Source: Kiloniellales bacterium (GTDB lineage: Bacteria; Pseudomonadota; Alphaproteobacteria; Kiloniellales; JAKSDN01). Taken from it: DNA of 64,000 bases. The stretch covers positions 197 to 64,196 of the forward strand of contig JBFJPL010000010.1 of assembly GCA_041617155.1 (NCBI GenBank). Direction: 5' to 3'. Position 1 is the first letter of the stretch, and each line of letters begins with the position of its first letter. The translations under genes and the position numbers were made by a program. The notes under the pieces were generated by a model. It saw nothing but the letters and a program-made list of their open reading frames with translations, was not told the DNA's origin and did not search any database. This document shows positions 9,400-62,453 of the stretch, in pieces.

Positions 9400-9433
9400 T
9401 CTGATGAATGAACCAACTTTACCGCATCCCGCT

Positions 9434-15925: not shown

Positions 15926-15959
15926 GGCCGGCGCCCGCGCCGGCCGCGGAGATCGGCCG

Positions 15960-42474: not shown

Positions 42475-42681
42475 GGCGTCCGCTACTCGAAAGCTGCGCC
42501 GGCACGGCGCCGACTTGGTCCCCGGGACTATATGAAGGCGGGTGCGCTTTGGCGAGGGGGCGGGGCGTCCGGGGCCGCCAAATACCGCTTCAATAGCCCA
42601 AACTACTAAATGGTCGGATTTATCTAATAATTTAGGTAAAACTTGGAACGTAAGTGGCAATTTTGTGGTATATTTACCGCT

Positions 42682-46749: not shown

Positions 46750-47568
46750 TCAGCCGCCGCCTGCGGCCACGATCTCGCGCACCAGGGCGAGGTCGGAGAC
46801 CTTGTCGACATCGACCGGCGCGGTCGGGAAGGGCATTTGCACCACCGTGGCCCGCACCTTGATGGCCGCCGAGGCACGTCGCATCGCGGCCGACAGGGTC
46901 AGGCGGCCGAGCAGGAACAGGACCAGCGAGACGACGCCGAAGCTGGCGATCATGCGCCAGGGCTTCTTGCGGTGGCTTTCCGCACGGGCCCAGAAGCGCA
47001 CCGCCTGGAGCCCGGCCGGCCTTGTTAACGCGAAGAGGTTGCAGCCGGAAAAGCGTCCGTCGCGGAACCTCAGGTAGGTGCGTTCGGCGCCGGGAAAGGC
47101 GCTCTCGATCACCGATTTCGCCGCCAGGGCGGCGACCACGTCGGCGCCGGTCGCCTGAGCCTCGGCCAAGAAGTGCTCGATCATCTGAACCGTCACGAGC
47201 GGGTTGTCCGCCGTGGTGACGAGCAGGGGGGTGGGGCTCGCCAGGGCCTCGGTCGCCGCCAGTACGCTGCGGCTCGGAGTCGCGCCGCTGGTCAGGACCC
47301 TGACCTTGCCGGCCGCGACCGTCGCGCTGACCGCCGAAAGCTCGGTCAGCAACTCGGGCGCCTCGATCGAGATCACGATGTCGCCCACCGAGGGGCTCGC
47401 CAGCAGCGTCTCCAGAACCCGCACGACCATCGGCACGCCGGCGATATCGACCAGGCACTTGTGGCTCTTGCCCTCACTCAGCGCGACCGGGTCCGAGGCC
47501 CCGCGCGAGCCGGCCAGGACCAGGGCGGTGAAGACCTGGCCACCGGGGCTGCCGTCCTCCTTGCTCAC
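46750..47568 (-). CDS. MobA-like NTP-transferase-fold protein with C-terminal TM helix
   Basis: 272 aa. The GTG start overlaps the stop of the upstream GNAT gene (GTGA). Motifs LVLAGSRGASDP and TTADNPL are present. The TM helix is MIASFGVVSLVLFLLG. Confidence 0.8.
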   Translation of the reverse strand: MSKEDGSPGGQVFTALVLAGSRGASDPVALSEGKSHKCLVDIAGVPMVVRVLETLLASPSVGDIVISIEAPELLTELSAVSATVAAGKVRVLTSGATPSRSVLAATEALASPTPLLVTTADNPLVTVQMIEHFLAEAQATGADVVAALAAKSVIESAFPGAERTYLRFRDGRFSGCNLFALTRPAGLQAVRFWARAESHRKKPWRMIASFGVVSLVLFLLGRLTLSAAMRRASAAIKVRATVVQMPFPTAPVDVDKVSDLALVREIVAAGGG

Positions 47569-48767
47569 GCCAGCGCCTTTTCGTAGATCCGGTAGGTCTT
47601 GTAGGGCCGGCCGCCAGCCGTCTCGATGATGCTCTGGGCCTGCAGGTTGTCCTCGAGCACCCAGGAAAGCTCCGCGCTCTCAAAGCCGCGCCGGCGCAGG
47701 CCTTGGTGCGCCCGGTTGATCACCGCGAAGGCCAGGGCGGCGCCCAACGTGCCGCCCTGGAATTTTCGCCGCACGCCCATCAGCGGCATGCGGGCGGTGC
47801 GGATCTTGCCGGCTTTCAGGCGGTACAGCAGTTTGGCCCAGCCGAACGGCAAAAGCGCGCCGTCCAGATCGGCGATCGCCTCGTTAAGGTTCGGCAGGCC
47901 GACCGCGAAAGCCGCTGGCTCGCCCTCGACCTCGGCGATCGCGACGCATTCGGCATCGATCAGCGGCTTCAGGTCCTTGGCGACCTTGGCGATTTCGACC
48001 TGGGAGAAGGGGACGAAGCCCCAGTTGTTGGCCCAGGCGTCGTTGAAGATTCCCATGACCGCCTTCAGGTCCTCGTCGAACCGACGCATCAACAGCGGCC
48101 GGATGGTCAGGCCTGATTGCGCCTCGAGGCGACCGATCAGCCGTCGCGCGGACTCGGGCAGCGGGTCCCTGGCCATGTCGAATTCATAGGCGATGAGGTC
48201 GCGCACCTTGGCGTAGCCCAGGGCCTCCAGCCGTTCCGCGTAGTAGGGCCGCGCGTGTCCCATCATCAGCGAGGGCGGCCGCTCGAATCCCTCCACCAGA
48301 AGGCCGGACTCGTCGTTGATCGACAGGCTGAAGGGCCCGCGCACGCGCACCAGGCCGCGCTGGCGCAGCCAAGCCTCGGCGGTGCCGAGCAGCTGGGCGA
48401 ACACTTCCGCGTCGTCGATCGCCTCGAGGAAGCCAAAATGCCCGGTCGCGTCCTGGTGCTGGTTCAGCGCCGCCTGGTCGATCTGGGCGCTGATCCGGCC
48501 GACCGGCGTGCCGCCGCTGAGCGCCAGCCAAAGCTGCACCTCGGCGTGGCGGAAAAAGGGATTGGCCTTGCGGTCAAGGTGCTGGCGCCGTTCGAAGACC
48601 AGCGGCGGGACCCATTGGGAATCATCCCAGTAGATGCGCCAGGGAACCCTGATGAAGCGGTCGAGTGCCGCTTTGCCTTCGACCGGCAGGATCTCGACGG
48701 CGCCGGGCGCCGGCGCGCGCGCCGCGACCTGTTCCCGACCCGCTCCGCGCTTAGCCTGCTCAGGCAA
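47565..48767 (-). CDS. GNAT-fold N-acyltransferase, candidate bacterial ceramide synthase (bCerS-like)
   Basis: 400 aa (TTG start, AGAGGAG upstream). Motifs VPWRIYWDDSQWVPPL, NPFFRHAEVQLWLA, GRISAQID, GHFGFLEA and RGPFSLSINDESGLLVEGF are present. As far as I recall, this family is often mis-annotated as dATP pyrophosphohydrolase, and it includes the Caulobacter ceramide synthase. Confidence 0.7.
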   Translation of the reverse strand: MPEQAKRGAGREQVAARAPAPGAVEILPVEGKAALDRFIRVPWRIYWDDSQWVPPLVFERRQHLDRKANPFFRHAEVQLWLALSGGTPVGRISAQIDQAALNQHQDATGHFGFLEAIDDAEVFAQLLGTAEAWLRQRGLVRVRGPFSLSINDESGLLVEGFERPPSLMMGHARPYYAERLEALGYAKVRDLIAYEFDMARDPLPESARRLIGRLEAQSGLTIRPLLMRRFDEDLKAVMGIFNDAWANNWGFVPFSQVEIAKVAKDLKPLIDAECVAIAEVEGEPAAFAVGLPNLNEAIADLDGALLPFGWAKLLYRLKAGKIRTARMPLMGVRRKFQGGTLGAALAFAVINRAHQGLRRRGFESAELSWVLEDNLQAQSIIETAGGRPYKTYRIYEKALA

Positions 48768-48883: not shown

Positions 48884-49375
48884 CTATTGTCGCAGGGTGA
48901 TCTCCACGGTCGTACCGTTGGGGCCGACCGTAAAACGCGCTTCCTTGTGCTTCGGCGGCCCGAGGCGCAGGCCGGGATTGTTGGAGACGCCATAGGGCTC
49001 GGCCGGCAGTCCCAAGGCGTTCTTGTCGAACTTCCTGTTGCCGTTGACGTCGTGATAGAGGCCGATCGCGAAGACCCCTGGTCCCGGCACCGGCAGGCAC
49101 ATCTCGACGCTGCCGATGCGCGCCGGAACGCGAACCCGCACCAGTTTCTTCTTCTTTTTCAGGAACTCCTCCGGCTTGTCGCCGTGCAGGTCCGCGGTGA
49201 TCGTGCCCTTGGCCTTGCGCACGTTCTTGACGATGACACGGATCGCGCCGGCCTGTTCCTCGCAGGCCGCGGCGCGTGGTGTGGCGGCGCTTTGATCGAG
49301 GCCCGAGGCCGGCGCCGCCGAAGCGGGCAGGCCGACCGCCAATGCCAGCATCAAGCCTCTGAGTACGAATGTCAT
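48884..49375 (-). CDS. DUF2141-like secreted protein
   Basis: 163 aa with a signal peptide. Motifs HDVNGNRKFDKNALGLPAEPYGVSNN are present. Confidence 0.8.
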   Translation of the reverse strand: MTFVLRGLMLALAVGLPASAAPASGLDQSAATPRAAACEEQAGAIRVIVKNVRKAKGTITADLHGDKPEEFLKKKKKLVRVRVPARIGSVEMCLPVPGPGVFAIGLYHDVNGNRKFDKNALGLPAEPYGVSNNPGLRLGPPKHKEARFTVGPNGTTVEITLRQ

Positions 49376-49571
49376 CGATAGCCTGCCGTCGGTCCAGTTG
49401 GTGAAGCCGGGGTTGCCTCATCTTTATACGAAGCCTCGGGGCCTTACATCCACATTCCTTTGGTCGTCGCTTAAGGCGATCAGAAATACCTGTTTTCAAT
49501 CCGCCCGGCAGGCTAAACCTAAGCGGCCCGTTGCATCGCAGGTATCGCGCCCCGACCACGTTGCGAGCACT

Positions 49572-50759
49572 ATGTTCAAGACCCTAGACCGCTACGTTCT
49601 CCGGCAGATCATCGTCTCGTCGGCGGCGATGATCGGCATTGCCCTGATCGCTCTCCTGCTGGAGCGGTTGCTGCGGCTGCTCGGGCTGGCCGCCAATCCG
49701 GACCGGGTTCTGGGCTACATCTCGCAAATGCTGGTCTCGCTGATCCCGCACTACCTCGGGATCGCCCTGCCGTTGGCGTTCTTCCTCGGCATGATGCTGA
49801 CCTTCAACCGGCTTAGCCGCGACAACGAGCTGGCGGTGATGACCGCCGCCGGCAAGGGGCTGCAGCGGGTCATGGTGCCGGTTCTGGGCCTGGCCTTCGT
49901 ATTGACCGTCATCGCCGCCGTGACCTTCAGCTACCTTCAGCCGCTGGCCCGCTACACCTATCGCTCGCTGGCCCACACGGTGGTGCATGCGTCGCTCAAC
50001 GCGGCGGTAAAGGAGGCGACTTTCGTTCATGTCGATGGCCTGACCTTCATCGCCGAGAACGCCTCGGCGGACGGCGAGCAGCTCGGCAGGATTTTCGTCT
50101 ACGAGGAAAAGGCCGACGGCCGATCCTTCGTCACCACCGCGAGCCGGGGCACCTTGCGCGCTTCGAAACAAGGTCAGGGGCCGCTTCTGGTCCTGGACCA
50201 GGGCGAGCGGCTGGAGTTCCGTCCCGAACGCGGCGGCGCCGGTACCTTGGAGTTCAGCCGGTTCCAGTGGCCGATCACCCGCTCGTCGGACGCCGGGTTC
50301 CGGGCGCGCGGCAAGGACGAGAGGGAGCTCACCCTGTGGGAACTCTGGGCCGCCGCGAAGGCGCCGCCGCCGAAGATATCCGCGGCGGAGGCCATCGCCG
50401 AACTGCACGCCCGGCTGGTCAGCGTGCTGACCATACTGGTGCTGCCGTTCCTGGCGGTGCCCCTCTCGCTCGGCGGCGGGCGAATTGGCCAGTCCTACGG
50501 CATTGGCGTCGGGCTTCTGATCCTGGTGGTCTACGAGAAGGTGGTGACCTTCGGCGAGGCCATGGCGGAGAAGGGCGACATTACGCCCTGGCTCGCCATT
50601 TGGCTGCCTTTCGGCCTGTTTGCCCTGCTCGGCGGCTACCTCTTCTACCGGGCGGCCTACACGGTTTCCAGCGGCACGCTGGCCGGGTTGCCGGCGCCGC
50701 GCGACCTGTTCAAGCTGCTCGGCCGGCGCTTTCGCCTCAGGCACAGGCGCGCCACATGA
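49572..50759 (+). CDS. lptF: LptF/YjgP-family permease
   Basis: Part of ORF 49398..50759 with ATG at 49572. The sequence is MFKTLDRYVLRQI... It has six-TM architecture with a large periplasmic loop. Confidence 0.85.
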   Translation: MFKTLDRYVLRQIIVSSAAMIGIALIALLLERLLRLLGLAANPDRVLGYISQMLVSLIPHYLGIALPLAFFLGMMLTFNRLSRDNELAVMTAAGKGLQRVMVPVLGLAFVLTVIAAVTFSYLQPLARYTYRSLAHTVVHASLNAAVKEATFVHVDGLTFIAENASADGEQLGRIFVYEEKADGRSFVTTASRGTLRASKQGQGPLLVLDQGERLEFRPERGGAGTLEFSRFQWPITRSSDAGFRARGKDERELTLWELWAAAKAPPPKISAAEAIAELHARLVSVLTILVLPFLAVPLSLGGGRIGQSYGIGVGLLILVVYEKVVTFGEAMAEKGDITPWLAIWLPFGLFALLGGYLFYRAAYTVSSGTLAGLPAPRDLFKLLGRRFRLRHRRAT

Positions 50760-51829
50760 ACAGCCTGTTGAGCCGCTATCTGGCACGGCTTTTTCTGGCA
50801 CGGCTGTTGGTCATCCTGCTTGGCCTCGCGGCCCTGGTGCTTTTGCTCGACCTGCTGGCGAACAGCGACGAGATCATCGAGCGCGGCCGCGGCATCGCCG
50901 AAACGCTCGGCCGCTACAGCGTGCTGCGGTTGCCCGGCGTGCTGTCTCAGGTTATTCCCATCTCGGTCCTGCTGGCCACCTTGACGATGCTGGCCAGCCT
51001 GGCCCGGCATAGCGAACTGGTCGCGATCTTTGCCTCCGGCGTGTCCCACTTCAGGCTGATTCTCACCTTGTTGCCGGTCGCGCTGCTGGTTGCCGTGGTG
51101 CAGTACCTGGTCGAGGACTGGGCGCTGCCGCCGGCCAACGCGGCGCTTCGGGCCTGGGGTGTCGCCGACTTCGAGGACTTCGCCGCGAAAGACGATCAGG
51201 CGCGAACCTGGTTTCGACAGGGCGACAACTTCGTGTCGGTTCGCAAGATCTCCGGCGAGCAAGGGGATTTGTCCGGCATCGCCATCTTTCGCCGCAATGC
51301 CGAAGGCCGGCTGGTCGAAAAGATCGAGGCGGCGCGCGCCAGCTATGCCGCCGAAACCTGGGTTCTGGAGGATGTGGTCCGGAGCAATCCGGGCTCCACG
51401 AACAAGGTCACCGAGGCGCGTCTGGTTTGGCCCGGGGCGATCGAGAGCTCCGTGTTGCACCTGCTGTCCGTCCACCCGCGGGAGCTGCCCCGGGCGCAAC
51501 TGGTCCATCTGGTCGAGAAGAACGGCTACGGCAACCGGCCGCTCTATCTCTACAAGGTCTGGCTGCACAACAAGGTCGCCCGACCCTTCGCGACCATGGT
51601 ACTGGTCCTGGTCGGTATCGCGGCGGTGCAATGGGTCCATCCCCGGCGGCCGGCGGCCGGCATGCTGATCATTGGCATCGGGGTCGGGTTCATCTATTGG
51701 ATCTTCGACGAGTTCGTCGTGACGATCGGCGAAGCCGGGCTGCTGCCCGCCGTGATCGCGGCCTGGGCGCCGCCGATCATCCTGGCTGCTCTTGCCAGCG
51801 CCGTGATCCTGCGCCATGAGGGAAAGTAG
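50756..51829 (+). CDS. lptG: LptG/YjgQ-family permease
   Basis: Part of ORF 50267..51829. ATG at 50756 overlaps the lptF stop (ATGA). The sequence is MNSLLSRYLARLFLARLLV... Confidence 0.85.
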   Translation: MNSLLSRYLARLFLARLLVILLGLAALVLLLDLLANSDEIIERGRGIAETLGRYSVLRLPGVLSQVIPISVLLATLTMLASLARHSELVAIFASGVSHFRLILTLLPVALLVAVVQYLVEDWALPPANAALRAWGVADFEDFAAKDDQARTWFRQGDNFVSVRKISGEQGDLSGIAIFRRNAEGRLVEKIEAARASYAAETWVLEDVVRSNPGSTNKVTEARLVWPGAIESSVLHLLSVHPRELPRAQLVHLVEKNGYGNRPLYLYKVWLHNKVARPFATMVLVLVGIAAVQWVHPRRPAAGMLIIGIGVGFIYWIFDEFVVTIGEAGLLPAVIAAWAPPIILAALASAVILRHEGK

Positions 51830-51841
51830 CCCGAACATCCC

Positions 51842-52801
51842 ATGAAAATCGGATTGGTCAGCAATTGGCGAAGCCGGCGCAACAAGCGGGGTCTGCCGGT
51901 GCTGCCGGACACCAGGGTTTCGGGCGTCGAGATTCTGCATCGTCCGTTGGACGGGATCGTCGGCCTGGGCGACGTCTTGCGCGACTTCGCGGCGGCCGAG
52001 GTCGATATCCTCGCCGTCAATGGCGGCGACGGCACCGTCTCGGCCACCTTGAGCGAGCTGCTGCACCGCAATGCGTTCGACAAGCTGCCCCTTCTGGCGC
52101 TGCTGGGTGGCGGCACCACGAACATGACCGCCGCCGACGCGGGCCTGCGCGGCCCGGCGGCCAAGGCCTTGAGGCGCCTGGTCGCGCGGACCGCGCGCAA
52201 CGAACTCGAAGCCGTCACTGTCGAGCGTGACGTCATCCGGGTCGACTACCGGCCCGACCGGGCGCCGCTCTACGGCATGTTCTTCGGGACCGCCGCGATC
52301 TGCCGGGCGATTCAGCTGTGCCACGAGGTGTTTCATCCGATCAAGGTGGAATCCTCGGCCGCCGCCGGCGCGACCCTGGCCTACGTCTTCGCGTGCAGCC
52401 TGTTCGGCCGCACCGACAAGCATCGACTTATCCAAGGCGACCGAATGACCGTGCGCTTGGACGGCCGGGCCAGCGAAGAGGGCGAAAAGCTTTTGGCCCT
52501 GGTGACCACGCTGGACCGTTTGGTGCTGCGCTCCCGGCCGTTCTGGGGCAAGGAGGAGGGGGCGCTTCGATACATGAGCATCGCCCACCCGCCCTGGCGT
52601 CTGGGCCGCTCGGCCAGGCGCGTTCTGTACGGCGGCGCGGACCGCGGTTTGCCGCCGGAGCACTACGACAGTCACAACGCCGAGCGCATATCGTTCGAGA
52701 TGACCTGCCCCTTCACGCTCGATGGCGAGATCTTCGAACCGGCGCCGGACGTCCCGGTCGAACTGAGCTGCGGCGGGCGTCTGAGCTTTCTGCACAATTG
52801 A
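51842..52801 (+). CDS. Diacylglycerol-kinase-family lipid kinase (candidate ceramide kinase)
   Basis: 319 aa with ILAVNGGDGTV (DAGK catalytic domain motif) and LLGGGTTNM. It starts 12 nt after the lptG stop. Confidence 0.8.
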   Translation: MKIGLVSNWRSRRNKRGLPVLPDTRVSGVEILHRPLDGIVGLGDVLRDFAAAEVDILAVNGGDGTVSATLSELLHRNAFDKLPLLALLGGGTTNMTAADAGLRGPAAKALRRLVARTARNELEAVTVERDVIRVDYRPDRAPLYGMFFGTAAICRAIQLCHEVFHPIKVESSAAAGATLAYVFACSLFGRTDKHRLIQGDRMTVRLDGRASEEGEKLLALVTTLDRLVLRSRPFWGKEEGALRYMSIAHPPWRLGRSARRVLYGGADRGLPPEHYDSHNAERISFEMTCPFTLDGEIFEPAPDVPVELSCGGRLSFLHN

Positions 52802-52806: not shown

Positions 52807-53760
52807 ATGATGAAACGACAAAAGGCTGTCCGGGAGGTGATCGCGGCCGAGTTGGGCCAGCCGGTGTCCGACAGCGTCAAGGCCGCGGCGGCCGAGATCC
52901 GCCGACGTCACCGGGCGGCCGTCGCCGGCTGCCTGTTTTACGGTTCCTGTCTCAGGGAAGGCCGCGACCAGGGCCGGGTGATCGATTTCTACGTGCTCAC
53001 CCAGGACTACCGGCAGTTCCATGGCCGGCGCTTGCCGGCGATGCTGAACGCCCTTTTGCCGCCGAACGTCTATTACCTGGAGACCGAGTCCGACGGCCAA
53101 GTGGTCAGGGCCAAGTACGCAGTGATTTCGCTCGAGGATCTGGTCCAGGACACCTCGGCTTCCGCCTTTCTCTCGACCCTCTGGGGTCGTCTGTCGCAGC
53201 CCTGCGCGTTGGTCTACGAGCGCGACCAGCAGGTCCGCCGGGCGGTCGCCGCCGCGCTGGGTGCCGCGGTCGAAACCATGACGACGGAGACGCTGCCGCT
53301 GCTGCCGCGCGAATTTAGCGCCCGCGACCTCTGGACCCGGGCGTTTGCCGAAAGCTATCGCACCGAATTGCGGTCGGAACGCACGAACCGTCCAGCCGAG
53401 CTCTATCAAAGCTATGCCGCGCGCTACGACCGCGTGACGACGGCCATGCTGGCCGGATCACACATCGGGTCGGAGCCGGAGGCTTCGGACCCGCCGCGGT
53501 TCCGTCATGCGGCCGACGGCGGCAAACGCGGCGGCGCCGAACGACGATGGTGGCGCCGGCGCGTGGCCGGCAGGGCGGTCCATGTGCTGCGGCTCTGCAA
53601 GGCCGCCTATACCTTCACGGACGGCCTTGACTACATACTCTGGAAGATCGAACAGCACTCCGGCGTGCGCACCGAGCCGACGGCGTGGCAGCGGCGCCAT
53701 CCGCTCCTCGCGGCGCCGGGTCTGGCTTGGCGGCTCTATCGCCGCCGGGCCATCCGGTGA
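52807..53760 (+). CDS. Tam41/Mmp37-like nucleotidyltransferase (candidate lipid-phosphate cytidylyltransferase)
   Basis: Part of ORF 52318..53760; ATG at 52807 lies 5 nt after the kinase stop. The segments LFYGSCLREG...VIDFYVLTQDYRQFH, PPNVYYLE and KYAVISLEDLVQD....LWGRLSQP parallel the conserved blocks I recall for mitochondrial CDP-DAG synthase Tam41 (YGSGVF..D.IF.V.D...WH, GVYYN, KYGVIS...L..DL..W..LY.AGRLQKP). Confidence 0.65.
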   Translation: MMKRQKAVREVIAAELGQPVSDSVKAAAAEIRRRHRAAVAGCLFYGSCLREGRDQGRVIDFYVLTQDYRQFHGRRLPAMLNALLPPNVYYLETESDGQVVRAKYAVISLEDLVQDTSASAFLSTLWGRLSQPCALVYERDQQVRRAVAAALGAAVETMTTETLPLLPREFSARDLWTRAFAESYRTELRSERTNRPAELYQSYAARYDRVTTAMLAGSHIGSEPEASDPPRFRHAADGGKRGGAERRWWRRRVAGRAVHVLRLCKAAYTFTDGLDYILWKIEQHSGVRTEPTAWQRRHPLLAAPGLAWRLYRRRAIR

Positions 53761-53785: not shown

Positions 53786-55024
53786 CTAGACCCGCTCTTC
53801 GGCCACCCGGCGCAAAGGGAAGGCCTCGGCCGCCTCATAGGCGCGCATATCTTCCGCGACCATCGCAAAGGCTTCGGCGATCCGCTCGATCTGCGCCGGC
53901 GTGTGTGCCGCGGACGCACTGCAGCGCAGCAGCGAGGTGCTGTTTGGCGTACCCGGCGGGATCGCCAGGTTCACGTAGACGCCCGCCGCGATCAGCTTGT
54001 TCCAATACATCACGGCCTGGTCTTGGCTCGGGATCTTGACCGCGATGATCGGGCTGGCCGGCGCCGCCAGGGTCAGACCGAGATCGCTCAGCCGATCGTA
54101 AAGCGCGTGCGCATTGCGCCACAGCGTTTGCCTTAGTGACGGGTCGCTCGAGATCCGCCGCAGCGCCGTGGTTACCGAGGCGACGTTGGCCGGCGAGAGC
54201 GACGCCGTGAACATGTAGGGCCGACTGGCGAAGCGCAGATAGGGGAATTTCGGATGGTCCGAGGCGCAGAAGCCGCCGATCGAGCCCAGGCTCTTGCTGA
54301 AGGTACCGACGATGAAATCGACATCCTCCAACACGCCGGCATGCTCCGCCACGCCGCGGCCATGCTCGCCGAACACGCCGACCGAGTGCGCCTCGTCGAC
54401 GTAGAGGTAGGCGCCGTACTTGCGCTTGATCTCGGCGAACTCCGCCAGCGGCGCGATATCGCCGAACATGCTGTAGAGGCCTTCGACGATGATCAGCTTG
54501 TTGCCGCCGCCGCCGTCCAGGCGCTGTAGGCGCTTTTCCAGGTCGCTCGGCGAATTGTGCCGGAAGCGGATCACCGTGGCGCCGGTCATGCGGCAGCCGT
54601 CGTAGATGCAGGCGTGGCAATCGGCGTCCAACAGGATGTAGTCGTCCGGACCGGCGATCGCCGAGATCACGCCGAGGTTCGCCTGATAGCCGGTCGGGAA
54701 CACCATGGCCGAACCGAAATCGAAGAAAGACGCGATCTCTTTCTCGAGCGTGCGGTGTTCGGTATAGGTGCCGTTGGCGATGCGCGAACCGGTCGTGCCG
54801 GTGCCCAAACGCTCCAGCGCATCTTGTGCCGCGTCGACGCACTCGCGATCGAAGGTCAGGCCGAGATAGTTGTTGGTTCCCGCCAGCACGACTTTCCGCC
54901 CGCCGATGATGGCTTCCGTCGCGTGCCGCATTTCGTCCATGCACACGCCGAAAGGATCCTGTCCTGCGGCGACGATCTGTTCGTGCAGCGCGGGCAAGCC
55001 GGCCATTTTGTCAAAGAGATCCAT
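53786..55024 (-). CDS. spt: Serine palmitoyltransferase (alpha-oxoamine synthase family)
   Basis: Part of ORF 53786..55075 with ATG at 55024. It is collinear with the Sphingomonas SPT sequence as I recall it: DPFGVCMDE, GTNNYLGLTFD, GTTGSRIANGT, VDEAHSVG, the PLP-lysine motif GTFSKSLG and LLRCSASAAHTPAQI. Confidence 0.9.
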   Translation of the reverse strand: MDLFDKMAGLPALHEQIVAAGQDPFGVCMDEMRHATEAIIGGRKVVLAGTNNYLGLTFDRECVDAAQDALERLGTGTTGSRIANGTYTEHRTLEKEIASFFDFGSAMVFPTGYQANLGVISAIAGPDDYILLDADCHACIYDGCRMTGATVIRFRHNSPSDLEKRLQRLDGGGGNKLIIVEGLYSMFGDIAPLAEFAEIKRKYGAYLYVDEAHSVGVFGEHGRGVAEHAGVLEDVDFIVGTFSKSLGSIGGFCASDHPKFPYLRFASRPYMFTASLSPANVASVTTALRRISSDPSLRQTLWRNAHALYDRLSDLGLTLAAPASPIIAVKIPSQDQAVMYWNKLIAAGVYVNLAIPPGTPNSTSLLRCSASAAHTPAQIERIAEAFAMVAEDMRAYEAAEAFPLRRVAEERV

Positions 55025-55028: not shown

Positions 55029-55280
55029 CTACTGGGCCCCCGCTTGTTTGTGGATGGCTCGGACAAGATCCCCAACTGTCCGAATTTCCGATAACAGGTT
55101 CATCGGAAAGGAGATGCCATACTCGTCCTCTACTTCCATGATCAGATCGAGCACAGCCACTGAATCAATCTCCAAGTCTCCCGTGATATCGGTTTCGCCT
55201 GTCAGCTCTAGGTTTCTGACATTGAATTGCTGCAGCTTCTGGCAGACTTTGCGTAAAACCAGATCGTCCGCGACGTCCAT
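55029..55280 (-). CDS. Dedicated acyl carrier protein
   Basis: Part of ORF 55029..55370 (GTG); ATG at 55280 gives 83 aa. The phosphopantetheine site context is GDLEIDSVAVLDLIMEVE. It ends 4 nt before the spt start. The local G+C is noticeably lower. Confidence 0.85.
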   Translation of the reverse strand: MDVADDLVLRKVCQKLQQFNVRNLELTGETDITGDLEIDSVAVLDLIMEVEDEYGISFPMNLLSEIRTVGDLVRAIHKQAGAQ

Positions 55281-55582: not shown

Positions 55583-56524
55583 TCAAAGCCAACCGTTTCT
55601 CAGATACCAACCGAGCGTCAGACGCATGCCTTCATCCAGCTCCACCCTCGGCTGCCAGCCGGTCAAATCGGCGACGACGTTGTCCCGGCAAACCCAATCA
55701 TCGTGGTACAACTCGTTGACCTTCTCGGGCGCCATCGTCGGCGCACGTCCGGCAATTCGCGCCAGCCCGGAGTCGATGCCGGCAACCAGGCGCATCATGA
55801 TTCTCGGCACGGAAACGCAGGTCACTCTTCTGCCCAGGAAGCGCTCACCGGCCTCGGCAATTTCAGCCCAGCTGTAGCCGGCGCCCCGGGCATCCCTGAT
55901 CTCCAACCTCGATCCGCTCTCGACCTCGGCGGATAGCAGCGCAACGATCGCCTCGCAAAGGTCGGTCACATAGATGAGCGAGACCCGCGCCTTTGCAACC
56001 CTGGGCACCGGCAGAAAACCACGTTTCATGAAGCGGAACAGCCGCAGGGTTTCTCGGTCGCCAGGGCCATAGACAGCCGGCGGCCTCAGGGCGACCCAAT
56101 TCAATGCCGCGCCGTGCGCGGCCAATGCCTGCTCCGCCCGGTTCTTGCTCGCCGCGTAGCCGGACAGCGCCGGTTCGCGCGCGGCCAGTGAGGAGAGAAA
56201 GACGATGCGCGGCGGCGCCTCCTGGCGGCCGCAGACTTCGGCCAGCAGGGAGGTGCCGGCGGCATTCACCCGATCCAGGTCATCGCTCCGCGCCGCCTTG
56301 ATCAGGCCGGCGCAGTGCACCACCGCGTGACAGCCTTCGACCAATTCTTGCAAACTCGCCTGGTCCTCGAGCGTGCCGCCGACGACGGCGGCAGGCGCCG
56401 GCAAGCCGGCGCCATCCGGCCGGCGCGACAGAGCGCGCACGTCGAATCCCGCAGCCAGCAGGGACTCGACCAGGTGGCGACCGATAAAGCCGGTTGCCCC
56501 GGTAACCGCCACACGGCTGTTCAT
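55583..56524 (-). CDS. NAD(P)-dependent epimerase/dehydratase-family reductase (CerR-like)
   Basis: 313 aa with VTGATGFIGRHLV and the active-site context SGYAASKNRAE (YxxxK). It sits between the acyl ligase and acp, the same position I recall for the Caulobacter ceramide cluster. Confidence 0.8.
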   Translation of the reverse strand: MNSRVAVTGATGFIGRHLVESLLAAGFDVRALSRRPDGAGLPAPAAVVGGTLEDQASLQELVEGCHAVVHCAGLIKAARSDDLDRVNAAGTSLLAEVCGRQEAPPRIVFLSSLAAREPALSGYAASKNRAEQALAAHGAALNWVALRPPAVYGPGDRETLRLFRFMKRGFLPVPRVAKARVSLIYVTDLCEAIVALLSAEVESGSRLEIRDARGAGYSWAEIAEAGERFLGRRVTCVSVPRIMMRLVAGIDSGLARIAGRAPTMAPEKVNELYHDDWVCRDNVVADLTGWQPRVELDEGMRLTLGWYLRNGWL

Positions 56525-56625: not shown

Positions 56626-58356
56626 TCAATTCTGAGGGGCGGCAAAAAATCCGGAAAGGTAGCGAACCTTGGTGAAGCTGCGGCTGATCTTGCCTGACGA
56701 GGTGAGCGGCAGGCTGCGAACCGGCGCCAGCACGACCTTGGTGTCGACGCCGACGGACTTGCGCACGATCGTCGCGATCTCGTTTGCCAGGGTCGCGCGC
56801 TCCTCCTCCTCCCGGCTTCTGCATTGGACGACGGTGACGACTTCCTCGCCGTTCTCCGGCGATTCCACCGAGAAAGCCGCGACGTCGCCGTTCTTTATGC
56901 CGGCCAGGCGTTCAACCGCCCACTCGATGTCCTGAGGCCAGATGTTTCGGCCGTTGCAGATGATCAGATCCTTGGCGCGCCCGGTGATGACCAGTGAACC
57001 GTCGATCATATAGCCCAGGTCGCCGGTGTCGAGCCAGCCGTCTTCCGAAAGCACGGCGGCGGTCTTCTCCGGGTCCTGGAAGAAGCCGCTCATCAGGCTC
57101 GGCCCTTTGACCATAACCCGCCCGACCTGACGATCGGGTAGCAGCGTGCCGTCCTCGTCCCTGATCTCGATTTCGTGCCCGCCCATCGCCGTGCCGCAGA
57201 GCACCAGGGAGCGCGCGTCCTCGACCGGCGTGTCGGCCGTCGCCGGCACCGCTTTGCCGCTCCGGGCCAGCTCGCGCTTGTCGATCCGGTCGGTCTCGAA
57301 CTCCTCGGCCAGGGGCGCGAAGCTGACCGCCAGGGTGGATTCGGCCAGGCCGTAGCTCGGCACGAAGGCCGAGCGCTTGAATCCGAACTCCTTGAAGGTC
57401 TCCGCGAATCGGTTGAGCACGCCCGCGCGGACCATGTCGCCGCCGATGCCGGCGACCCGCCATGCCGAGAGGTCGAGCGAAACTTCCGAACCGTTGCTGC
57501 CCCGGCGCTGGCACAGGTCGTAGCCGAAGGAGGGGCTGAAAGCCAAGGTGCCGCCGTTCTCGGAGAGCAGCCGCAGCCACAGCAGGGGACGCCGGGCGAA
57601 GTCCGAGGTGGCGAGGTAGTCGATCGAAAGCTGTGACAGCATGGGACAGATGCTGAATCCGACCAAACCCATGTCGTGGTACAGCGGTAACCAGCTGGTG
57701 CAGCGGTCGCCCTCGCGGGCGTCCAGGCCGTGAATCATGATCGCCCGGCAGTTGCTGGTGATCGAGCGCTGCGAGATGACGATGCCCTTGGGGTCGCTCG
57801 TGCTGCCGGAGGAGTATTGAATGTAGGACGGATCGTCCGGGCCCGCCGGCCGCGGGTCGGGGCCTTCGGGCAGGGCGCAGAACTCCTCCGGGGTGCCGGC
57901 CATCGCGACTTCGAACCCCTCGAGCGCCTCGCGCAACATGCCGATCATGTGGGTCGATGCCACGGCCGCCGCCGGCAGGGCCGAGCCGATCATGCGCCGG
58001 ATCTGCTGAAGGTAGGCCTCCTTGGCGCCGAGGTTCATCGGCACGGGCAGCTGCATCGGAAGCAAGCTGGCGTACTGGCAGGCATAGAAGAAGCGGTGGA
58101 AATCGGGCGTCGTCTCGGCCACCAGAGCGACGCGGCTGCCCGGCTCCAGCCCGAGCTTGATGAGCTTTCGAGCCAGAGAAATCGCGTCTTCGCGCATTTC
58201 GGCGTAGCTCAGACTGGCCTGAAGCTCACCCCTGATCGAGTAGAAGTTGCAGCCGGCCTCGCCCTTGGCGGCATAGTCGAGCCCCTCGGCGAGTGTTTCG
58301 AATTTTCCGCGCATGAACGGCAGGGAGCTGGAGGATGTCGGCGTGGGGCGTTGCAT
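56626..58356 (-). CDS. Fatty acyl-AMP ligase / acyl-ACP synthetase
   Basis: 576 aa with the AMP-binding motif YIQYSSGSTSDPKG, plus TGDLGY and the C-terminal SSGKISR. Confidence 0.9.
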   Translation of the reverse strand: MQRPTPTSSSSLPFMRGKFETLAEGLDYAAKGEAGCNFYSIRGELQASLSYAEMREDAISLARKLIKLGLEPGSRVALVAETTPDFHRFFYACQYASLLPMQLPVPMNLGAKEAYLQQIRRMIGSALPAAAVASTHMIGMLREALEGFEVAMAGTPEEFCALPEGPDPRPAGPDDPSYIQYSSGSTSDPKGIVISQRSITSNCRAIMIHGLDAREGDRCTSWLPLYHDMGLVGFSICPMLSQLSIDYLATSDFARRPLLWLRLLSENGGTLAFSPSFGYDLCQRRGSNGSEVSLDLSAWRVAGIGGDMVRAGVLNRFAETFKEFGFKRSAFVPSYGLAESTLAVSFAPLAEEFETDRIDKRELARSGKAVPATADTPVEDARSLVLCGTAMGGHEIEIRDEDGTLLPDRQVGRVMVKGPSLMSGFFQDPEKTAAVLSEDGWLDTGDLGYMIDGSLVITGRAKDLIICNGRNIWPQDIEWAVERLAGIKNGDVAAFSVESPENGEEVVTVVQCRSREEEERATLANEIATIVRKSVGVDTKVVLAPVRSLPLTSSGKISRSFTKVRYLSGFFAAPQN

Positions 58357-58659: not shown

Positions 58660-60378
58660 TCAAAGCGAAGTGGCTTGAGGTTCGGCTTCCGGCGTGACGG
58701 CGAAACGATCGGCGCCCAGTTCGTAGACCCGGTCGGCCGCGTCGAGCCACGCCGGCCGGTGGGTGATCGCCAGGATCGTGACAGAGTCCGCCAGACTGCG
58801 GATATTGCGGCAGATCGCCGCTTCGGTTTCCGGGTCGAGCGCGGAGGTCACCTCGTCCAGGATGAGCAGCGCGGGATTATGGACCAGGGCGCGGGCCAGG
58901 GCGATCCGCTGGCGCTGGCCGCCCGAGAGCCTGGCGCCGCGTTCGCCGACCAGCGTCATCATGCCCTCCGGCAGGGCGGAGACGAACTCCCAGGCATCCG
59001 CGGCTTCGAGCGCGGCCTGCGCCTGCTCGGCGCTGAACGAGTTGTCGCCGAGCGTCACGTTGGCCAAGACCGTATCGTGGAAGAGTATGAGCTCCTGGGG
59101 CACATAGCCGATCATTGCGCGCCAGGCATGGAGATCGACCTGTTCCAGCGGCACGCCGTCAATCAGAATTTCGCCCTCGTCCGGCCGGTAAAGCCCCAGC
59201 AGGAGATCGGTCAAGGTGGTCTTGCCGACACCGGACGCGCCCATGATCACGGTCACCTTGTTGGCCGGCACCTCCATCGAGATGTTCTCCAGGACCTGGT
59301 TGTCGCCGAACGCGAAGGAGATGTCGTGCATAGTGCAGCCTTCGTTCAAGGTCGGATGCTGTGTGCCGTGCACCACCTCGCGTTCCAGCTTGGATTGGTC
59401 GACCAGCTTGTGGATCGCCCAGTAGGCGCTTTCGACGATCGACGCTTCCTGCAGCAGTTTCTGAATGCGGTTGACCCGCGACACCGTGCGTTGCAGCACG
59501 AGCCCCATGACAAACAACTCGGTGAGCGGCTGCTGCAGAAACCGGACCGCCAGATAAAAGCCGACCACCAGGCACAACGTCAAGATCGGTTCCTGCAGGT
59601 TGCGCATCAGCTGGGTGCTGAGGGTTTGCCGCCGCAAAGCCTGTCTCAGGTCGTCGATCTTGTTTTCGAACAGCTGGGCGAAATGGCCTTGCCGGCCCAT
59701 GGCCTTGAGCGGCTTGATGCCAACGAGCGCGTCGCTCAAGTGCACCACAAGCTCCTGCGTGCGCTTGGTCTGCCGCCGGCCCGCCTTCCTGGCGGTTCGC
59801 ACCATGGAGCTGAGCAGGAGGGCGATCAGTCCGCCGATCAGCAGCGCGACCAGCGCCAGTTGCCACGACAGCAACAAGGCCACGGCGATATAGACCGCGC
59901 ATTGCACGATGCTCGCGATGAACTGAACGGCCAGGACAAAGGCTTGGGCTGAACGCGATGCTTCGAAACTGACCGCATTGGCCAGTCGGCCGACCGGTTG
60001 GCCGATGAAAAAACTCCACTTCGCGCGCATCAGGTTGTCGATCAGCTTGGTGCGCAACTCGGTCGCGACCTCCGCCGCGGCGTAGCCGACATGGCGCATG
60101 GCCAGGAGGCTGAGGCCGGATTTCAGGACTATACCGCCCAGCACCACGAGAATCAGGATTTCGAGGTTGGCCGGCAGGCCGAGGCGATCCAGAGATTCGA
60201 AAATGACCTTGCTGGCCGTCGATGTTCCGCCGTCGGACCCTGCGCCGGCGACGGACAGCAGCGGCAGCAGGCTGGTCAGGCCGATCCCCTCGGCCAGGCC
60301 GGCCAGCAGCAGCAGGCCGAGAACGGTCCAACGGATCCGCGCCTTGGTGGCGAAAAAGATGCCTAGTACACCGCGCAT
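58660..60378 (-). CDS. ABC exporter, fused permease-ATPase (MsbA-like)
   Basis: Part of ORF 58660..60456 with ATG at 60378. It has a six-TM N-terminal half. Walker A is GASGVGKTT, the signature is LSGGQRQRIALARAL, and LILDEVTSALD is present. Confidence 0.9.
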   Translation of the reverse strand: MRGVLGIFFATKARIRWTVLGLLLLAGLAEGIGLTSLLPLLSVAGAGSDGGTSTASKVIFESLDRLGLPANLEILILVVLGGIVLKSGLSLLAMRHVGYAAAEVATELRTKLIDNLMRAKWSFFIGQPVGRLANAVSFEASRSAQAFVLAVQFIASIVQCAVYIAVALLLSWQLALVALLIGGLIALLLSSMVRTARKAGRRQTKRTQELVVHLSDALVGIKPLKAMGRQGHFAQLFENKIDDLRQALRRQTLSTQLMRNLQEPILTLCLVVGFYLAVRFLQQPLTELFVMGLVLQRTVSRVNRIQKLLQEASIVESAYWAIHKLVDQSKLEREVVHGTQHPTLNEGCTMHDISFAFGDNQVLENISMEVPANKVTVIMGASGVGKTTLTDLLLGLYRPDEGEILIDGVPLEQVDLHAWRAMIGYVPQELILFHDTVLANVTLGDNSFSAEQAQAALEAADAWEFVSALPEGMMTLVGERGARLSGGQRQRIALARALVHNPALLILDEVTSALDPETEAAICRNIRSLADSVTILAITHRPAWLDAADRVYELGADRFAVTPEAEPQATSL

Positions 60379-60570
60379 CGCGTTTGCAGTTCCGTGATTT
60401 GCCCGTTCAGCTGCCCGGACGGGGCGCCCCGCTTCTTGCTCGCCGCAGGCTAACAAATCGCTGGTTTAGGGCTTCCTAACAGACTTCCCAATGTGACTCC
60501 AGTCGACTTTGGCCGGCATCGGCGCGGCGTGCGAGGCCGTAGGCGCCGTCCGATCGCCGGACCGCGGCTC

Positions 60571-61104
60571 TCAGCGGACCGGCCAGAGACCGCGCAAGTG
60601 CGCGATCAATGCCTTTCTTTGGCCCTGGTCCAGCTCGGTGTGGGCCCCCAGGTTGGGCAACGCCGGCCAGCCGGGATCATCGAAGGAAACGCCGCCGAAC
60701 GCGCGGGGCTCGGCATATCTGGGCAGCACATGGAAATGGACGTGAGGGTCGACCATCATGAGCATGAGGTAGTTGATCTTGTCGTAGGCGAAGGCCTTGC
60801 CCAGGGTGGTTTCGATATCGGCGGTCACGGTACCGAGGTTGTCGAACGCCGGCTGGCCGATGGCCGCAAAGGCCGTTGCCGGTTGCTTGCAGGCCAGGAC
60901 CAGGGCGCCCAGCGTGGCTTGCTGCGGGCGCAAGAGGATTACCCAGTGGTCGTAGTCCGCCAGCAGCGTCTCGGGATAGCCGAACTTGGCGATGGTCTGG
61001 TTCGCGGCCGGTGACGTGGCGGTTGGCTCGGACAACGGATCTCTCCAAACGAATGTCGGAACGTCGGCCGCCGGTCTATGCGCCGCTGTGCGGACGACGG
61101 CCAA
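60571..61104 (-). CDS. HIT-family nucleotide hydrolase/transferase
   Basis: 177 aa (TTG start, N-terminus uncertain). The histidine triad is HVHFHVLPR. Confidence 0.75.
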   Translation of the reverse strand: MAVVRTAAHRPAADVPTFVWRDPLSEPTATSPAANQTIAKFGYPETLLADYDHWVILLRPQQATLGALVLACKQPATAFAAIGQPAFDNLGTVTADIETTLGKAFAYDKINYLMLMMVDPHVHFHVLPRYAEPRAFGGVSFDDPGWPALPNLGAHTELDQGQRKALIAHLRGLWPVR

Positions 61105-61307
61105 ATCTAGCCGTCACGGCCGCCAATCGCAAAGCCCATGCCGTGGCGGCATTTGCATTCGCCGCCAAATCGATTATGTACCCACGGCAGTAAATCGAAG
61201 TGACCGGCGGCCTGGAGCGCCAGCGCGGCGCCCGCCTGCCGCGACAGCTTTGGAGTTCGGCGTTGGTGCAGACAAGCGATTCGGCGCGGGGTAGAGCGCC
61301 CGGCCTT

Positions 61308-62453
61308 ATGGTGATCGGCCAGTGTGATACCAAGATCTGGGGATTGGCGCCGGGCGAACGCCATATCCGCGCCTTCGCACGGGCCGGCGTATCCTCGCTC
61401 GTCAAGACCAGCGAGCCGGCTCCGGCCGAGGGTTCCGTGGTCATGATCCGGGCCGAATACGTGATCGCTGAGGAACTGGTCCGCGCCCTGGTGGAAACGC
61501 CCGGCGTGATCCTGGCGGTCGAGGGGCGGCGCGCCGGCGAGAAGCTCGCCGTCGCGGCCCACGCGGAGGCGGCCGATGCCGAGGCGGTCGCCGCGTTCCT
61601 GACGCGCGGCGCCTTCGGCCCGGACGATTCGGCACCCAGGGGCTTGCGCGTTCTGGGACCTGGCGAAATCGGCTCCCAGTACAATCAGATGCTGCGCAAG
61701 CGGATGGTTCCCTTCGTGCTGTCGCTGGCCGACCAGCCGCTCGCCGAGATCGAGAAAACGACCTTCAGCGCGGTCTACAAGGGCTCGACCGACTTCGTCA
61801 CCAAGTGGTGCTGGCCGTTGCCCGCGCGCTGGGCCACGCGCTGGGCGGCCGCCTGGCACATCACCCCCAACACGATCACGACGGTCAGCCTGGTGTTCGT
61901 CGTCCTGGCGACCTATCTCTTCGCCCAAGGTGATTTTCTGGCCGGCGTCGCGGCGGCCTGGTTCATGACCTTCCTGGACACGGTCGACGGCAAGCTGGCC
62001 CGGGTGACACTGACCTCCTCCAAGTGGGGCAATCTCTACGACCACGGCATCGATCTGATCCACCCGCCGTTCTGGTGGGGCGCGTGGTGGTTCGGCCTCA
62101 AGGGCGTGAGCGATCCGGCCCTGCAGTCCTCGCTCGACCTGGCGCTCTGGATCATCCTGGTCGGCTATGTCGCCGGCCGCCTGTTGGAGGGCGTTTTCCT
62201 CTGGAGCTTCAAGATCCAGACCCATATCTGGCGCCCGGTCGACCACTACTTCCGTACGATCACCGCCCGGCGCAATCCCAATCTGGCGATCATGATGGTC
62301 GGTGCGCTGTTCGGCCGCCCCGATCTCGGCTTCCTGGCGGTCGCCGGCTGGACCGTGTTCTGCCTGCTGTTCCATGCCGTGCGCGTCCTGCAGGCGCTGG
62401 CCGTCCACACGCGCGGCGGGCGGATCAGCTCCTGGCTGAAGGAGCCGGGCTAG
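61308..62453 (+). CDS. CDP-alcohol phosphotransferase with about 190-aa N-terminal cytoplasmic domain
   Basis: Part of ORF 61200..62453 (GTG) with ATG at 61308. The full family signature D-x2-DG-x2-AR...G-x3-D-x3-D is present as DTVDGKLARVTLTSSKWGNLYDHGIDLIH. The C-terminal half is multi-TM. Confidence 0.85.
   Translation: MVIGQCDTKIWGLAPGERHIRAFARAGVSSLVKTSEPAPAEGSVVMIRAEYVIAEELVRALVETPGVILAVEGRRAGEKLAVAAHAEAADAEAVAAFLTRGAFGPDDSAPRGLRVLGPGEIGSQYNQMLRKRMVPFVLSLADQPLAEIEKTTFSAVYKGSTDFVTKWCWPLPARWATRWAAAWHITPNTITTVSLVFVVLATYLFAQGDFLAGVAAAWFMTFLDTVDGKLARVTLTSSKWGNLYDHGIDLIHPPFWWGAWWFGLKGVSDPALQSSLDLALWIILVGYVAGRLLEGVFLWSFKIQTHIWRPVDHYFRTITARRNPNLAIMMVGALFGRPDLGFLAVAGWTVFCLLFHAVRVLQALAVHTRGGRISSWLKEPG

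Follow-up and report, generated by a model that had tools for sequence, protein, structure and literature searches.

The two adjacent permease genes at positions 49572–51829 of the window (the whole stretch of 64,000 nucleotides analyzed here) fall into the LptF2/LptG2 group within the lipopolysaccharide-exporter (Lpt) family, and thus add one more case to a system that has been described before. This family has already been published, in 2024, for Caulobacter crescentus, where CC_1156/CC_1155 were named LptF2/LptG2 and proposed to be exporters of phosphosphingolipids (PMC11324152). The initial annotation left a choice between a housekeeping LPS extractor genetically tied to sphingolipid synthesis and a specialized pair extracting sphingolipids. 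The clade to which the pair belongs, its conserved synteny, and the published genetics and biochemistry of the Caulobacter proteins all favor the specialized pair, whereas the housekeeping extractor is contradicted by the clade and by the lack of the pepA/holC–lptD context.

How sphingolipids reach the outer membrane of bacteria has been answered only lately, by LptF2/LptG2, and a single model organism underlies this answer. Within the Lpt family, the dedicated permease pair makes up a lineage of its own with strong support, and travels with the sphingolipid island over several alphaproteobacterial orders, including on megaplasmids, and the neighboring genes for the flippase and for periplasmic accessory proteins vary. 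The window locus leaves the published picture unchanged; it assists the choice of comparison organisms and the correct annotation of such pairs, the latter because pipelines may name them LPS LptF/LptG.

For the window's organism, we infer a mechanism in which the pair is probably a dedicated LptF2/LptG2-type extractor of the anionic sphingolipid made by the island. The product of each gene is one transmembrane half of an Lpt-type ABC extractor of this kind. The two would form a heterodimer with 6 + 6 TM helices and a periplasmic beta-jellyroll on each half, driven by an LptB ATPase whose gene would lie in another part of the genome. The extractor would move an anionic sphingolipid, presumably a ceramide phosphoglycerate-like product of the surrounding island, out of the inner membrane and hand it to a periplasmic Lpt-type bridge leading to the outer membrane. 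Since no LptB, LptC, LptA or LptD/E genes were found within the 64-kb window, every partner of the pair is assumed; lpx genes were not found in it either. The permease genes, the ceramide-kinase-like gene and the Tam41-like gene form one tight plus-strand block, so that the step making the lipid anionic, and toxic if kept in the inner membrane, would be expressed together with the exporter.

The permease genes and their products

The lptF2-type gene occupies positions 49572..50759 of the plus strand (395 aa; ATG at 49572, TGA ending at 50759), and the lptG2-type gene, positions 50756..51829 of the same strand (357 aa; ATG at 50756, TAG ending at 51829). The overlap of the two genes noticed in the initial annotation was read directly from the sequence at the same coordinates, the ATGA at 50756–50759 being common to the lptF2 stop and the lptG2 start. 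Such overlap is a generic trait of lptFG genes, with nothing special to the window pair: among 76 related loci it comprises 4 nt in 55 and 1 nt in 9, and in E. coli, 1 nt. Proteins identical to these two were found on metagenome contigs and one 65-kb MAG contig only; the best relative in GTDB is 64% identical, and the relatives belong to the Kiloniellales and Rhodospirillales. The source of the window is an uncultured alphaproteobacterium close to the Kiloniellales.

Both proteins cover the complete Pfam profile PF03739 LptF_LptG (1–353 of 353), with E-values of 1.7e-69 for LptF2 and 3.7e-72 for LptG2. Among the NCBIfam models, the first protein is best described as LptF (TIGR04407, 252.6 bits vs the cut-off of 230), and the second one, as LptG (TIGR04408, 258.4 bits vs the cut-off of 240), both passes being marginal. 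As the cut-offs of the LPS LptF/LptG models are passed, the sequence scores alone do not exclude an LPS substrate. The LptF/LptG assignment agrees with comparison to solved structures, where the best matches of LptG2 are LptG chains.

By hydropathy, both proteins have 3 + 3 TM segments flanking a large periplasmic domain (about 160 aa in LptF2). The AF2 model of LptF2 (pLDDT 79) contains six strands at residues 151–234, and its top Foldseek matches are LptF chains (TM 0.6–0.73). The coupling-helix glutamates E86 of LptF2 and E87 of LptG2 correspond to the LptB-contacting residues E84 of E. coli LptF and E88 of E. coli LptG, and are kept in nearly all aligned sequences, both of the clade and of the housekeeping proteins.

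Phylogeny and conserved linkage to sphingolipid genes

In the phylogenetic trees, the window pair groups with about 80 other pairs from sphingolipid islands. Together with 20 others taken from the related loci, including three without sphingolipid flanks as well as those of Roseomonas mucosa and Sphingomonas parapaucimobilis, it is monophyletic in 200/200 bootstraps for LptF and in 199/200 for LptG (L-INS-i alignment, Poisson distances). Bootstraps based on the Kimura distance (43% and 61%) were misleading, as these distances are undefined at high divergence, and are superseded by the Poisson-based ones. Housekeeping LptFG proteins of Alphaproteobacteria (Sinorhizobium, Azospirillum, Methylobacterium, Pseudorhodobacter) lie outside this clade: the identity of the window pair to housekeeping proteins is 19–25%, vs the within-clade mean of 37% (LptF) and 32% (LptG).

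The initial annotation had asked whether the linkage to spt is conserved in relatives. Indeed, the spt/bCerS/kinase linkage is retained, at least three core sphingolipid genes being present at 52 of the 58 GTDB loci that have 6 kb or more of sequence on each side. The linked loci span the Rhodospirillales, Kiloniellales, Hyphomicrobiales, Parvibaculaceae, Azospirillum, Niveispirillum and Jannaschia, and the linkage persists in metagenome relatives down to 29% identity. We also considered whether the unlinked clade members (loci L043, L047, L059, L075 and L009) could be housekeeping copies, and rejected this, as none of them is in the pepA context; the neighbors of unlinked members are either metallophosphoesterase and sugar ABC genes, or sulfotransferases.

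Gene neighborhood and operon structure

The genes for Spt, bCerS and the candidate ceramide kinase are all located within 6 kb on either side of the permease pair. Downstream of lptG2 on the plus strand lies the gene of a DAGK-family lipid kinase, a CpgB-like ceramide kinase candidate (51842..52801; DAGK_cat, E 6e-9), followed by the gene of a Tam41/Mmp37-like protein (52810..53760, plus strand; PF09139, E 6.5e-9), which resembles CpgC (CC_1161), itself described as Tam41-like; this gene was also called on metagenome contigs. The kinase directly follows lptG in 12 related loci, and in 37 loci a single CDP-alcohol transferase gene is inserted between them; relative to spt, the kinase has the same position as CC_1160/CpgB. 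The spacer between lptG2 and the kinase is 51830–51841, with the next ATG at 51842, so that the distance of 12 nt given in the initial annotation was confirmed.

The gaps along the plus-strand block lptF2, lptG2, kinase, and Tam41-like gene are −4, 12, and 8 nt, and the same four genes were called independently on metagenome contigs encoding identical proteins. No terminator-like site was found in the sequence between lptG2 and the kinase. The short gaps, the lack of such a site and the conserved gene order are consistent with co-transcription of the permeases with the kinase. A gene order close to that of the window is present in the cultivable relative Pelagibius litoralis DSM 21314.

Upstream of lptF2, the divergent intergenic region (49376..49571, 196 nt) separates it from the minus-strand gene of a secreted beta-sandwich DUF2141 protein (48884..49375; PF09912, E 9e-29), whose N-terminus carries a hydrophobic signal-like segment. 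This is presumably a promoter region; no sigma-70-like consensus site was found in it. The DUF2141 gene adjoins lptF in many Rhodospirillales and Kiloniellales loci, as well as on the Roseomonas plasmid. Beyond it, on the minus strand, is the gene of the candidate bacterial ceramide synthase, a bCerS-like GNAT protein (47565..48767; 400 aa, weak GNAT match). The permease pair had been described as lying between the ceramide synthase and the kinase; the adjacency holds for the kinase and fails for bCerS, as the DUF2141 gene and the 196-nt region intervene. Almost every related island has a bCerS homologue, with 45–67% identity, and the relative position of bCerS is the same as that of CC_1154. 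The bCerS gene overlaps by 4 nt with the gene of a MobA-like nucleotidyltransferase resembling CC_1153/CpgD (46750..47568, minus strand; NTP_transf_3), and the nucleotidyltransferase downstream of bCerS is kept in related loci.

On the other side of the plus-strand block, there is a series of minus-strand genes, starting with those of serine palmitoyltransferase Spt (53786..55024; NF047599, 626 bits vs the cut-off of 500; called as a 412-aa gene) and of a dedicated AcpR-like acyl carrier protein (55029..55280; PP-binding domain, matched by ACP models). These are followed by the genes of a CerR-like NAD-dependent reductase (55583..56524; Epimerase/3Beta_HSD domains), which adjoins acp and spt in related loci, and an AasR-like fatty acyl-AMP ligase/acyl-ACP synthetase (56626..58314; AMP-binding domain, NF006624, 770 bits). 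The next one encodes an ABC exporter half-transporter with TMD and NBD (58660..60456; ABC_membrane and ABC_tran), a candidate sphingolipid flippase. With the MsbA equivalog model it scores 257 bits, under the cut-off of 602, and its best match is HepA-like, likewise under the cut-off; its homologues are present at loci L012 and L013 and in many Hyphomicrobiales islands. The last minus-strand gene encodes a CC_1157-like HIT-family protein (60571..61104; HIT domain), a homologue of which immediately precedes lptF in 50 related loci. Finally, the plus-strand gene at 61200..62453 encodes a CDP-alcohol phosphatidyltransferase-family protein (PF01066), whose likeness to CpgA/CC_1159 is that of gene order only; the gene inserted between lptG and the kinase in the 37 related loci mentioned above is its homologue.

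Comparison with known systems

Similarly to the window pair, Caulobacter LptF2 (CCNA_01214/CC_1156) and LptG2 (CCNA_01213/CC_1155) are a PF03739 pair within a sphingolipid island. Both islands contain spt, acp, cerR, the acyl-ACP synthetase, bCerS, a CpgB-type candidate or known ceramide kinase, a Tam41-like CpgC-type protein, the HIT protein and the nucleotidyltransferase, and in both a dedicated LptB is absent. In Caulobacter, the genes lptF2, lptG2 and lptC2 are dispensable only if no anionic sphingolipid is made, their deletion being possible in an spt or cpgB mutant background alone, and LptF2 and LptG2 co-purify and bind the sole LptB, which is the LPS ATPase (10.64898/2026.04.12.717747, bioRxiv 2026). 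The islands differ in gene order, which is lptG–kinase–Tam41-like in the window, with the HIT gene 9 kb away, vs HIT–lptF2–lptG2–bCerS in Caulobacter. Moreover, Caulobacter LptC2 has no homologue in the window, the HepA/MsbA-like ABC exporter takes the place of the Wzx-like candidate flippase CC_1166, and the DUF2141 gene is a feature of the window, unlike Caulobacter. Orthology to the Caulobacter proteins would be transitive, going through the published Sphingomonas orthologues and the shared island content.

The Sphingomonas LptF/LptG (Swit_3905/3906 and the plasmid copy of S. parapaucimobilis) belong to the same clade and have the same spt/acp/cerR/bCerS linkage; they are about 28–32% identical to the window pair. 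By report, an organism that lacks LPS has this pair and no other. In Roseomonas, the annotation of the island copies goes no further than "LptF/LptG family permease". The housekeeping LptB2FG(C) systems (the E. coli, Shigella, Klebsiella and Enterobacter structures; S. meliloti) share with the window pair the family, fold and topology, as well as the overlap of the F and G genes, the coupling glutamates and the equivalent of LptF R33. The context is different: in S. meliloti, it is holC–pepA and lptF–lptG–lptD–surA, and E. coli shows the housekeeping context too, whereas the window pair has the DUF2141 gene upstream and the lipid kinase downstream, and neither pepA/holC nor lptD/surA is found around it.

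Substrate and role of the pair

The marginal passing of the LPS LptF/LptG equivalog models and the conservation of the coupling glutamates and of the overall fold speak for the pair as an ordinary housekeeping LPS extractor, with its sphingolipid neighbors incidental or merely regulatory. However, this is extremely improbable given the separation from housekeeping LptF/LptG in almost all bootstrap replicates at an identity of only 19–25% and the absence of the S. meliloti-type context, and chance placement does not explain a sphingolipid linkage that holds across orders.

It is also quite unlikely that this is the organism's only LptFG pair, serving by the same mechanism any outer-leaflet lipid, that is, sphingolipid alone should the organism lack LPS, or both LPS and sphingolipid. 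There is a precedent in Sphingomonas: the S. wittichii pair beside spt is reported to be the sole one (10.64898/2026.04.12.717747), and the S. parapaucimobilis pair falls within the clade of the window pair. Furthermore, the window proteins pass the NCBIfam LptF/LptG equivalogs, in contrast to the less specifically named Roseomonas copies, and no second lptFG pair is found within the available 64 kb. On the other hand, the genus in which sphingolipids replace LPS is Sphingomonas (10.64898/2026.04.12.717747), whereas the relatives of the window are the Kiloniellales and Rhodospirillales. A housekeeping lptF is present in each of the 12 Azospirillum records matched, and another Azospirillum species has an island-type pair (L076), which points to two pairs per genome in this genus. 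A further point against a sole pair comes from Roseomonas, where UDP-2,3-diacylglucosamine diphosphatase, an enzyme of lipid A synthesis or processing, is encoded on the same plasmid as the island.

A further elaboration of the dedicated extractor would be, in this Kiloniellales-like lineage, a route of sphingolipid export more self-contained than that of Caulobacter. The HepA/MsbA-like exporter (58660–60456) would be a dedicated flippase for ceramide phosphate, the genes of LptF2/LptG2 and of the two head-group enzymes would share a transcript, and the DUF2141 protein, being secreted, would replace the Caulobacter-only LptC2. The acidic residues that LptG2 has in place of K40/K41 (see below) would mark a cavity no longer tuned to lipid A. 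We consider this scheme unlikely as a whole. The idea of the DUF2141 protein as an LptA/LptC-like bridge was a dead end, as its AF2 model (pLDDT 86) is a plain beta-sandwich and the fold search yields only weak CBM20-like matches (E ≥ 0.012).

Residues of the lipid-binding cavity

We compared the basic residues that bind lipid A phosphates, namely K34, K40, K41, R133 and R136 of LptG, and R33 and K317 of LptF. The position of LptG K34 is occupied by D32 in the window protein (MAFFT and profile alignments), by Asp or Glu in 78 of 78 related pairs, and by an acidic residue in the 150 best cluster representatives, with about five exceptions, one of which is an LptFG fusion with housekeeping neighbors (a kdsD-like gene and lolA). 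The replacement of K34 was considered as a signature of a new substrate, and rejected, since Asp is also present in the housekeeping LptG of S. meliloti, M. bullatum and P. turbinis. Thus, it is normal outside the Enterobacteria-type proteins.

At the K40/K41 positions of LptG, the window protein has acidic residues (D38, E39), as does most of the clade, and the residues are basic in E. coli and in the housekeeping alphaproteobacterial proteins, although the latter are only three controls and the alignment of this loop depends on the method. The equivalents of R33 (R35 in the window) and R133 are retained. On the whole, the cavity comparison is mostly uninformative and gives no clear substrate signature. 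Specific to the clade are the residues E31, H60 and Y61 in TM1/TM2 of LptF, together with the RGxDERELT motif.

The permease genes and their protein family

Read directly from the sequence, the lptF-like gene is an ORF of 395 aa on the plus strand, from the ATG at 49572 to a TGA ending at 50759, and the lptG-like gene, on the same strand, runs from the ATG at 50756 to a TAG ending at 51829 (357 aa). The initial annotation described an ATGA overlap and a 12-nt gap before the lipid kinase gene, and both are confirmed: the second ATG, at 50756, lies within the stop of the first gene, and the first ATG after the TAG of lptG is at 51842. The gene models are backed by the codon-position GC, and the same four plus-strand genes were called independently on six metagenome contigs with identical proteins (395 aa, 357 aa, the 319-aa kinase and the 316-aa product of the fourth gene). 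The ATGA overlap is ordinary for the LptF/LptG family; it is 4 nt long in 55 of 76 related loci and 1 nt in nine of the 76, the latter also being the length in Escherichia coli K-12. Single LptF-LptG fusion polypeptides of 760-812 aa also occur among the relatives (P0230, P0239, P0241, P0254, P0256, P0258, P0274 and locus L095, 8001-10439), P0258 having a housekeeping neighbourhood of parAB, a kdsD-like SIS+CBS gene and lolA.

Both permeases match the Pfam family PF03739 along its entire profile. The NCBIfam models assign the first to LptF and the second to LptG, each slightly above the equivalog cut-off, and comparison with the solved LptB2FG structures agrees. By hydropathy, each protein has three transmembrane segments, a hydrophilic domain of about 160 residues and three further transmembrane segments. 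AlphaFold2 models the LptF-like protein (pLDDT 79) with a six-stranded periplasmic domain, and the best Foldseek matches of this model are LptF chains with TM-scores of 0.6-0.73.

The sphingolipid island

A complete sphingolipid island surrounds the pair. Upstream of lptF2, the minus strand carries a MobA-like nucleotidyltransferase gene (46750-47568), which overlaps by 4 nt the gene of a GNAT-like ceramide synthase candidate of 400 aa (47565-48767), and a DUF2141 gene (48884-49375), which is divergent from lptF2 and whose product has a signal-like N-terminus. Downstream, on the plus strand, the gene of the DAGK-family kinase (51842-52801) is followed after 8 nt by that of a Tam41-like protein (52810-53760). 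Then come, on the minus strand, genes for serine palmitoyltransferase (53786-55024), acyl carrier protein, a CerR-like reductase, fatty acyl-AMP ligase, an ABC exporter half-transporter (58660-60456) and a HIT protein, and finally, on the plus strand, a gene of the CDP-alcohol phosphatidyltransferase family and one for a HAD hydrolase. No terminator-like site was found in the sequence between lptG and the kinase gene, nor any other on the plus strand of the block downstream of 49900. The whole 64-kb window contains no genes for LptB, LptC, LptA, LptD/E or lipid A synthesis.

The serine palmitoyltransferase scores above the cut-off of the NCBIfam 'BetaP' model (626 vs 500 bits) and below that of the 'AlphaP' one (493 vs 670), though the host is an alphaproteobacterium. 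The island is adjoined by a DUF3482 GTPase and DUF2868 gene pair (43760-46653, minus strand), found on the same-species contigs L001 and L002 and absent from the related loci. Just beyond (38494-43554) are genes for a radical SAM protein, a FAD-dependent aromatic-ring hydroxylase-like protein and a PhyH-family dioxygenase. Minus-strand genes elsewhere in the window (7036-8196 and 10342-12036) code for a patatin-like phospholipase and for a protein with a T6SS Tle1-like phospholipase effector domain; no T6SS genes are near them.

The ABC exporter does not qualify as an MsbA equivalog, scoring 257 bits where the cut-off is 602; its best score, to a HepA-like glycolipid exporter, is likewise below the cut-off. 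Its homologues are present in many related islands, and in Caulobacter and in locus L093 it is replaced by a Wzx-like Polysacc_synt gene; the two may be alternative sphingolipid flippases. The position of the DUF2141 gene is kept in many Rhodospirillales and Kiloniellales loci and on a Roseomonas plasmid, and is not conserved in Hyphomicrobiales islands. The AlphaFold2 model of its product is a beta-sandwich (pLDDT 86) with weak, CBM20-like fold matches.

Housekeeping extractor or specialised paralog

Two alternatives had been proposed: the pair could be the housekeeping LPS extractor tied to sphingolipid genes, or a specialised paralog extracting sphingolipids. Housekeeping alphaproteobacterial controls came from a plasmid-collection protein search, via chromids and mislabelled chromosomes (among them Sinorhizobium meliloti, with the context holC-pepA | lptF-lptG-lptD-surA, Azospirillum oryzae, A. 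brasilense, Methylobacterium bullatum and Pseudorhodobacter turbinis). Neighbour-joining trees were built from L-INS-i alignments and bootstrapped 200 times. One clade united the window pair with 20 other pairs from related loci (200/200 replicates for LptF, 199/200 for LptG), and the housekeeping proteins formed their own (199/200 and 194/200). Identity between the window proteins and the housekeeping ones is 19-25%, no higher than to E. coli. Thus, the housekeeping reading is not upheld, and the pair falls into the specialised, sphingolipid-type branch.

A housekeeping lptF was present in 12/12 Azospirillum records matched, and a different Azospirillum species (L076) has an island-type pair; hence these are paralogous lineages and not variants of one gene. 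Azospirillum has its housekeeping pair split: on the A. oryzae chromid (L096, 4992-7156) a family-9 glycosyltransferase gene follows the housekeeping lptF in the place of lptG.

To assess conservation of the linkage, one genome per GTDB species was scanned, which yielded 80 loci, and these were then searched with the island proteins of the window; 58 of the loci have 6 kb or more of sequence on each side. Linkage to sphingolipid genes is kept in the relatives: at least three core genes were found in 52 of the 58 well-flanked loci and none in four. The kinase gene starts at most 60 nt after lptG in 12 related loci, a single CDP-alcohol transferase gene separates the two in 37, and a HIT gene is immediately upstream of lptF in 50. 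Identical proteins turned up nowhere but on metagenome contigs and a single 65-kb MAG contig; the nearest named relatives are alphaproteobacterial, from a Kiloniellales MAG (64% identity), followed by Rhodospirillales and Rhodovibrionaceae MAGs (53-55%) and Pelagibius (43-45%), and metagenome relatives down to 29% identity show the same linkage pattern.

No unlinked member of the set is in a housekeeping context. Three pairs without flanking sphingolipid genes (L043, L047 and L075, about 8900-16500) belong to the sphingolipid-type clade in the trees and lie between a sugar ABC importer and a metallophosphoesterase gene, the latter being an island gene in other genomes. The island with the permease pair also occurs on the Roseomonas mucosa megaplasmid p1-AD3 (L092), together with a lipid A enzyme gene, and on the Sphingomonas parapaucimobilis replicon unnamed5 (L091, 385 kb). 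Both replicons are roughly 385 kb and carry the whole island; as obgE and proB are also on the Sphingomonas one, it is a chromid and not a plasmid.

Comparison with Caulobacter and proposed mechanism

The system is already published, and the window pair is a further example of it. In the C. crescentus island CC_1152-CC_1168, CC_1156/CC_1155 were named LptF2/LptG2 and CC_1168 LptC2, CC_1166 was proposed as a Wzx-like flippase, and orthologues were given for Hyphomonas and Sphingomonas (Olea-Ozuna et al. 2024, PMC11324152). Uchendu, Isom and Klein (bioRxiv 10.64898/2026.04.12.717747) found that lptF2, lptG2 and lptC2 are deletable in spt or cpgB backgrounds only, that LptF2 and LptG2 co-purify, that the single LptB is bound by both, and that many alpha- and gammaproteobacterial sphingolipid loci have such pairs. 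By family and position the window kinase corresponds to CpgB and the Tam41-like protein to CpgC. Unlike Caulobacter, the window has a different gene order, a candidate flippase of another type and a DUF2141 gene, and lacks LptC2.

Protein family, fold, clade membership, synteny and the close packing of the genes identify the window pair as an LptF2/LptG2-type extractor; its presumed substrate, partners and transcription enter the following, most likely, mechanism. Ceramide would be made by the island and rendered anionic by the kinase and partner enzymes; the anionic lipid would be exposed by an inner-membrane flippase, perhaps the HepA/MsbA-like ABC exporter, and LptF2/LptG2, powered by a shared LptB, would raise it onto a periplasmic bridge. 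The operon layout would couple the toxic-intermediate step with export. It is quite probable that this dedicated pair is a second one in the host genome, beside a housekeeping pair; that it is the sole LptFG pair, as the LptF2/LptG2-type pair is reported to be in S. wittichii (10.64898/2026.04.12.717747), seems unlikely.

Cavity and coupling residues

In published structures the 1'-phosphate of lipid A is contacted by LptG K34, K62, R133 and R136 and LptF R33, and the 4'-phosphate by LptG K40 and LptF K317. Every related pair has Asp or Glu at the position of K34 (D32 in the window). We considered this replacement as a special feature of sphingolipid pairs and rejected it, since the controls share the acidic residue: it is found in three housekeeping alphaproteobacterial LptG proteins (L097, L099 and L100) and, with about five exceptions, in the best 150 representatives from 1.8 billion clusters, one of these representatives being an LptFG fusion with housekeeping surroundings. 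LptG K34 has been described as highly conserved, and lethal if changed to Glu, in Enterobacteria; thus, this 'conserved lysine' is lineage-specific.

At the LptG K40/K41 positions, E. coli and the three housekeeping alphaproteobacterial proteins carry basic residues and the window (D38, E39) and most of the clade acidic ones, in a comparison with n = 3 controls and a method-dependent loop alignment. Residues such as LptF E31, H60, Y61 and the RGxDERELT motif are specific to the clade relative to this small control set. The coupling glutamates E86 and E87 and R35, the equivalent of LptF R33, are kept in the window, which fits extraction of an anionic lipid driven by LptB.
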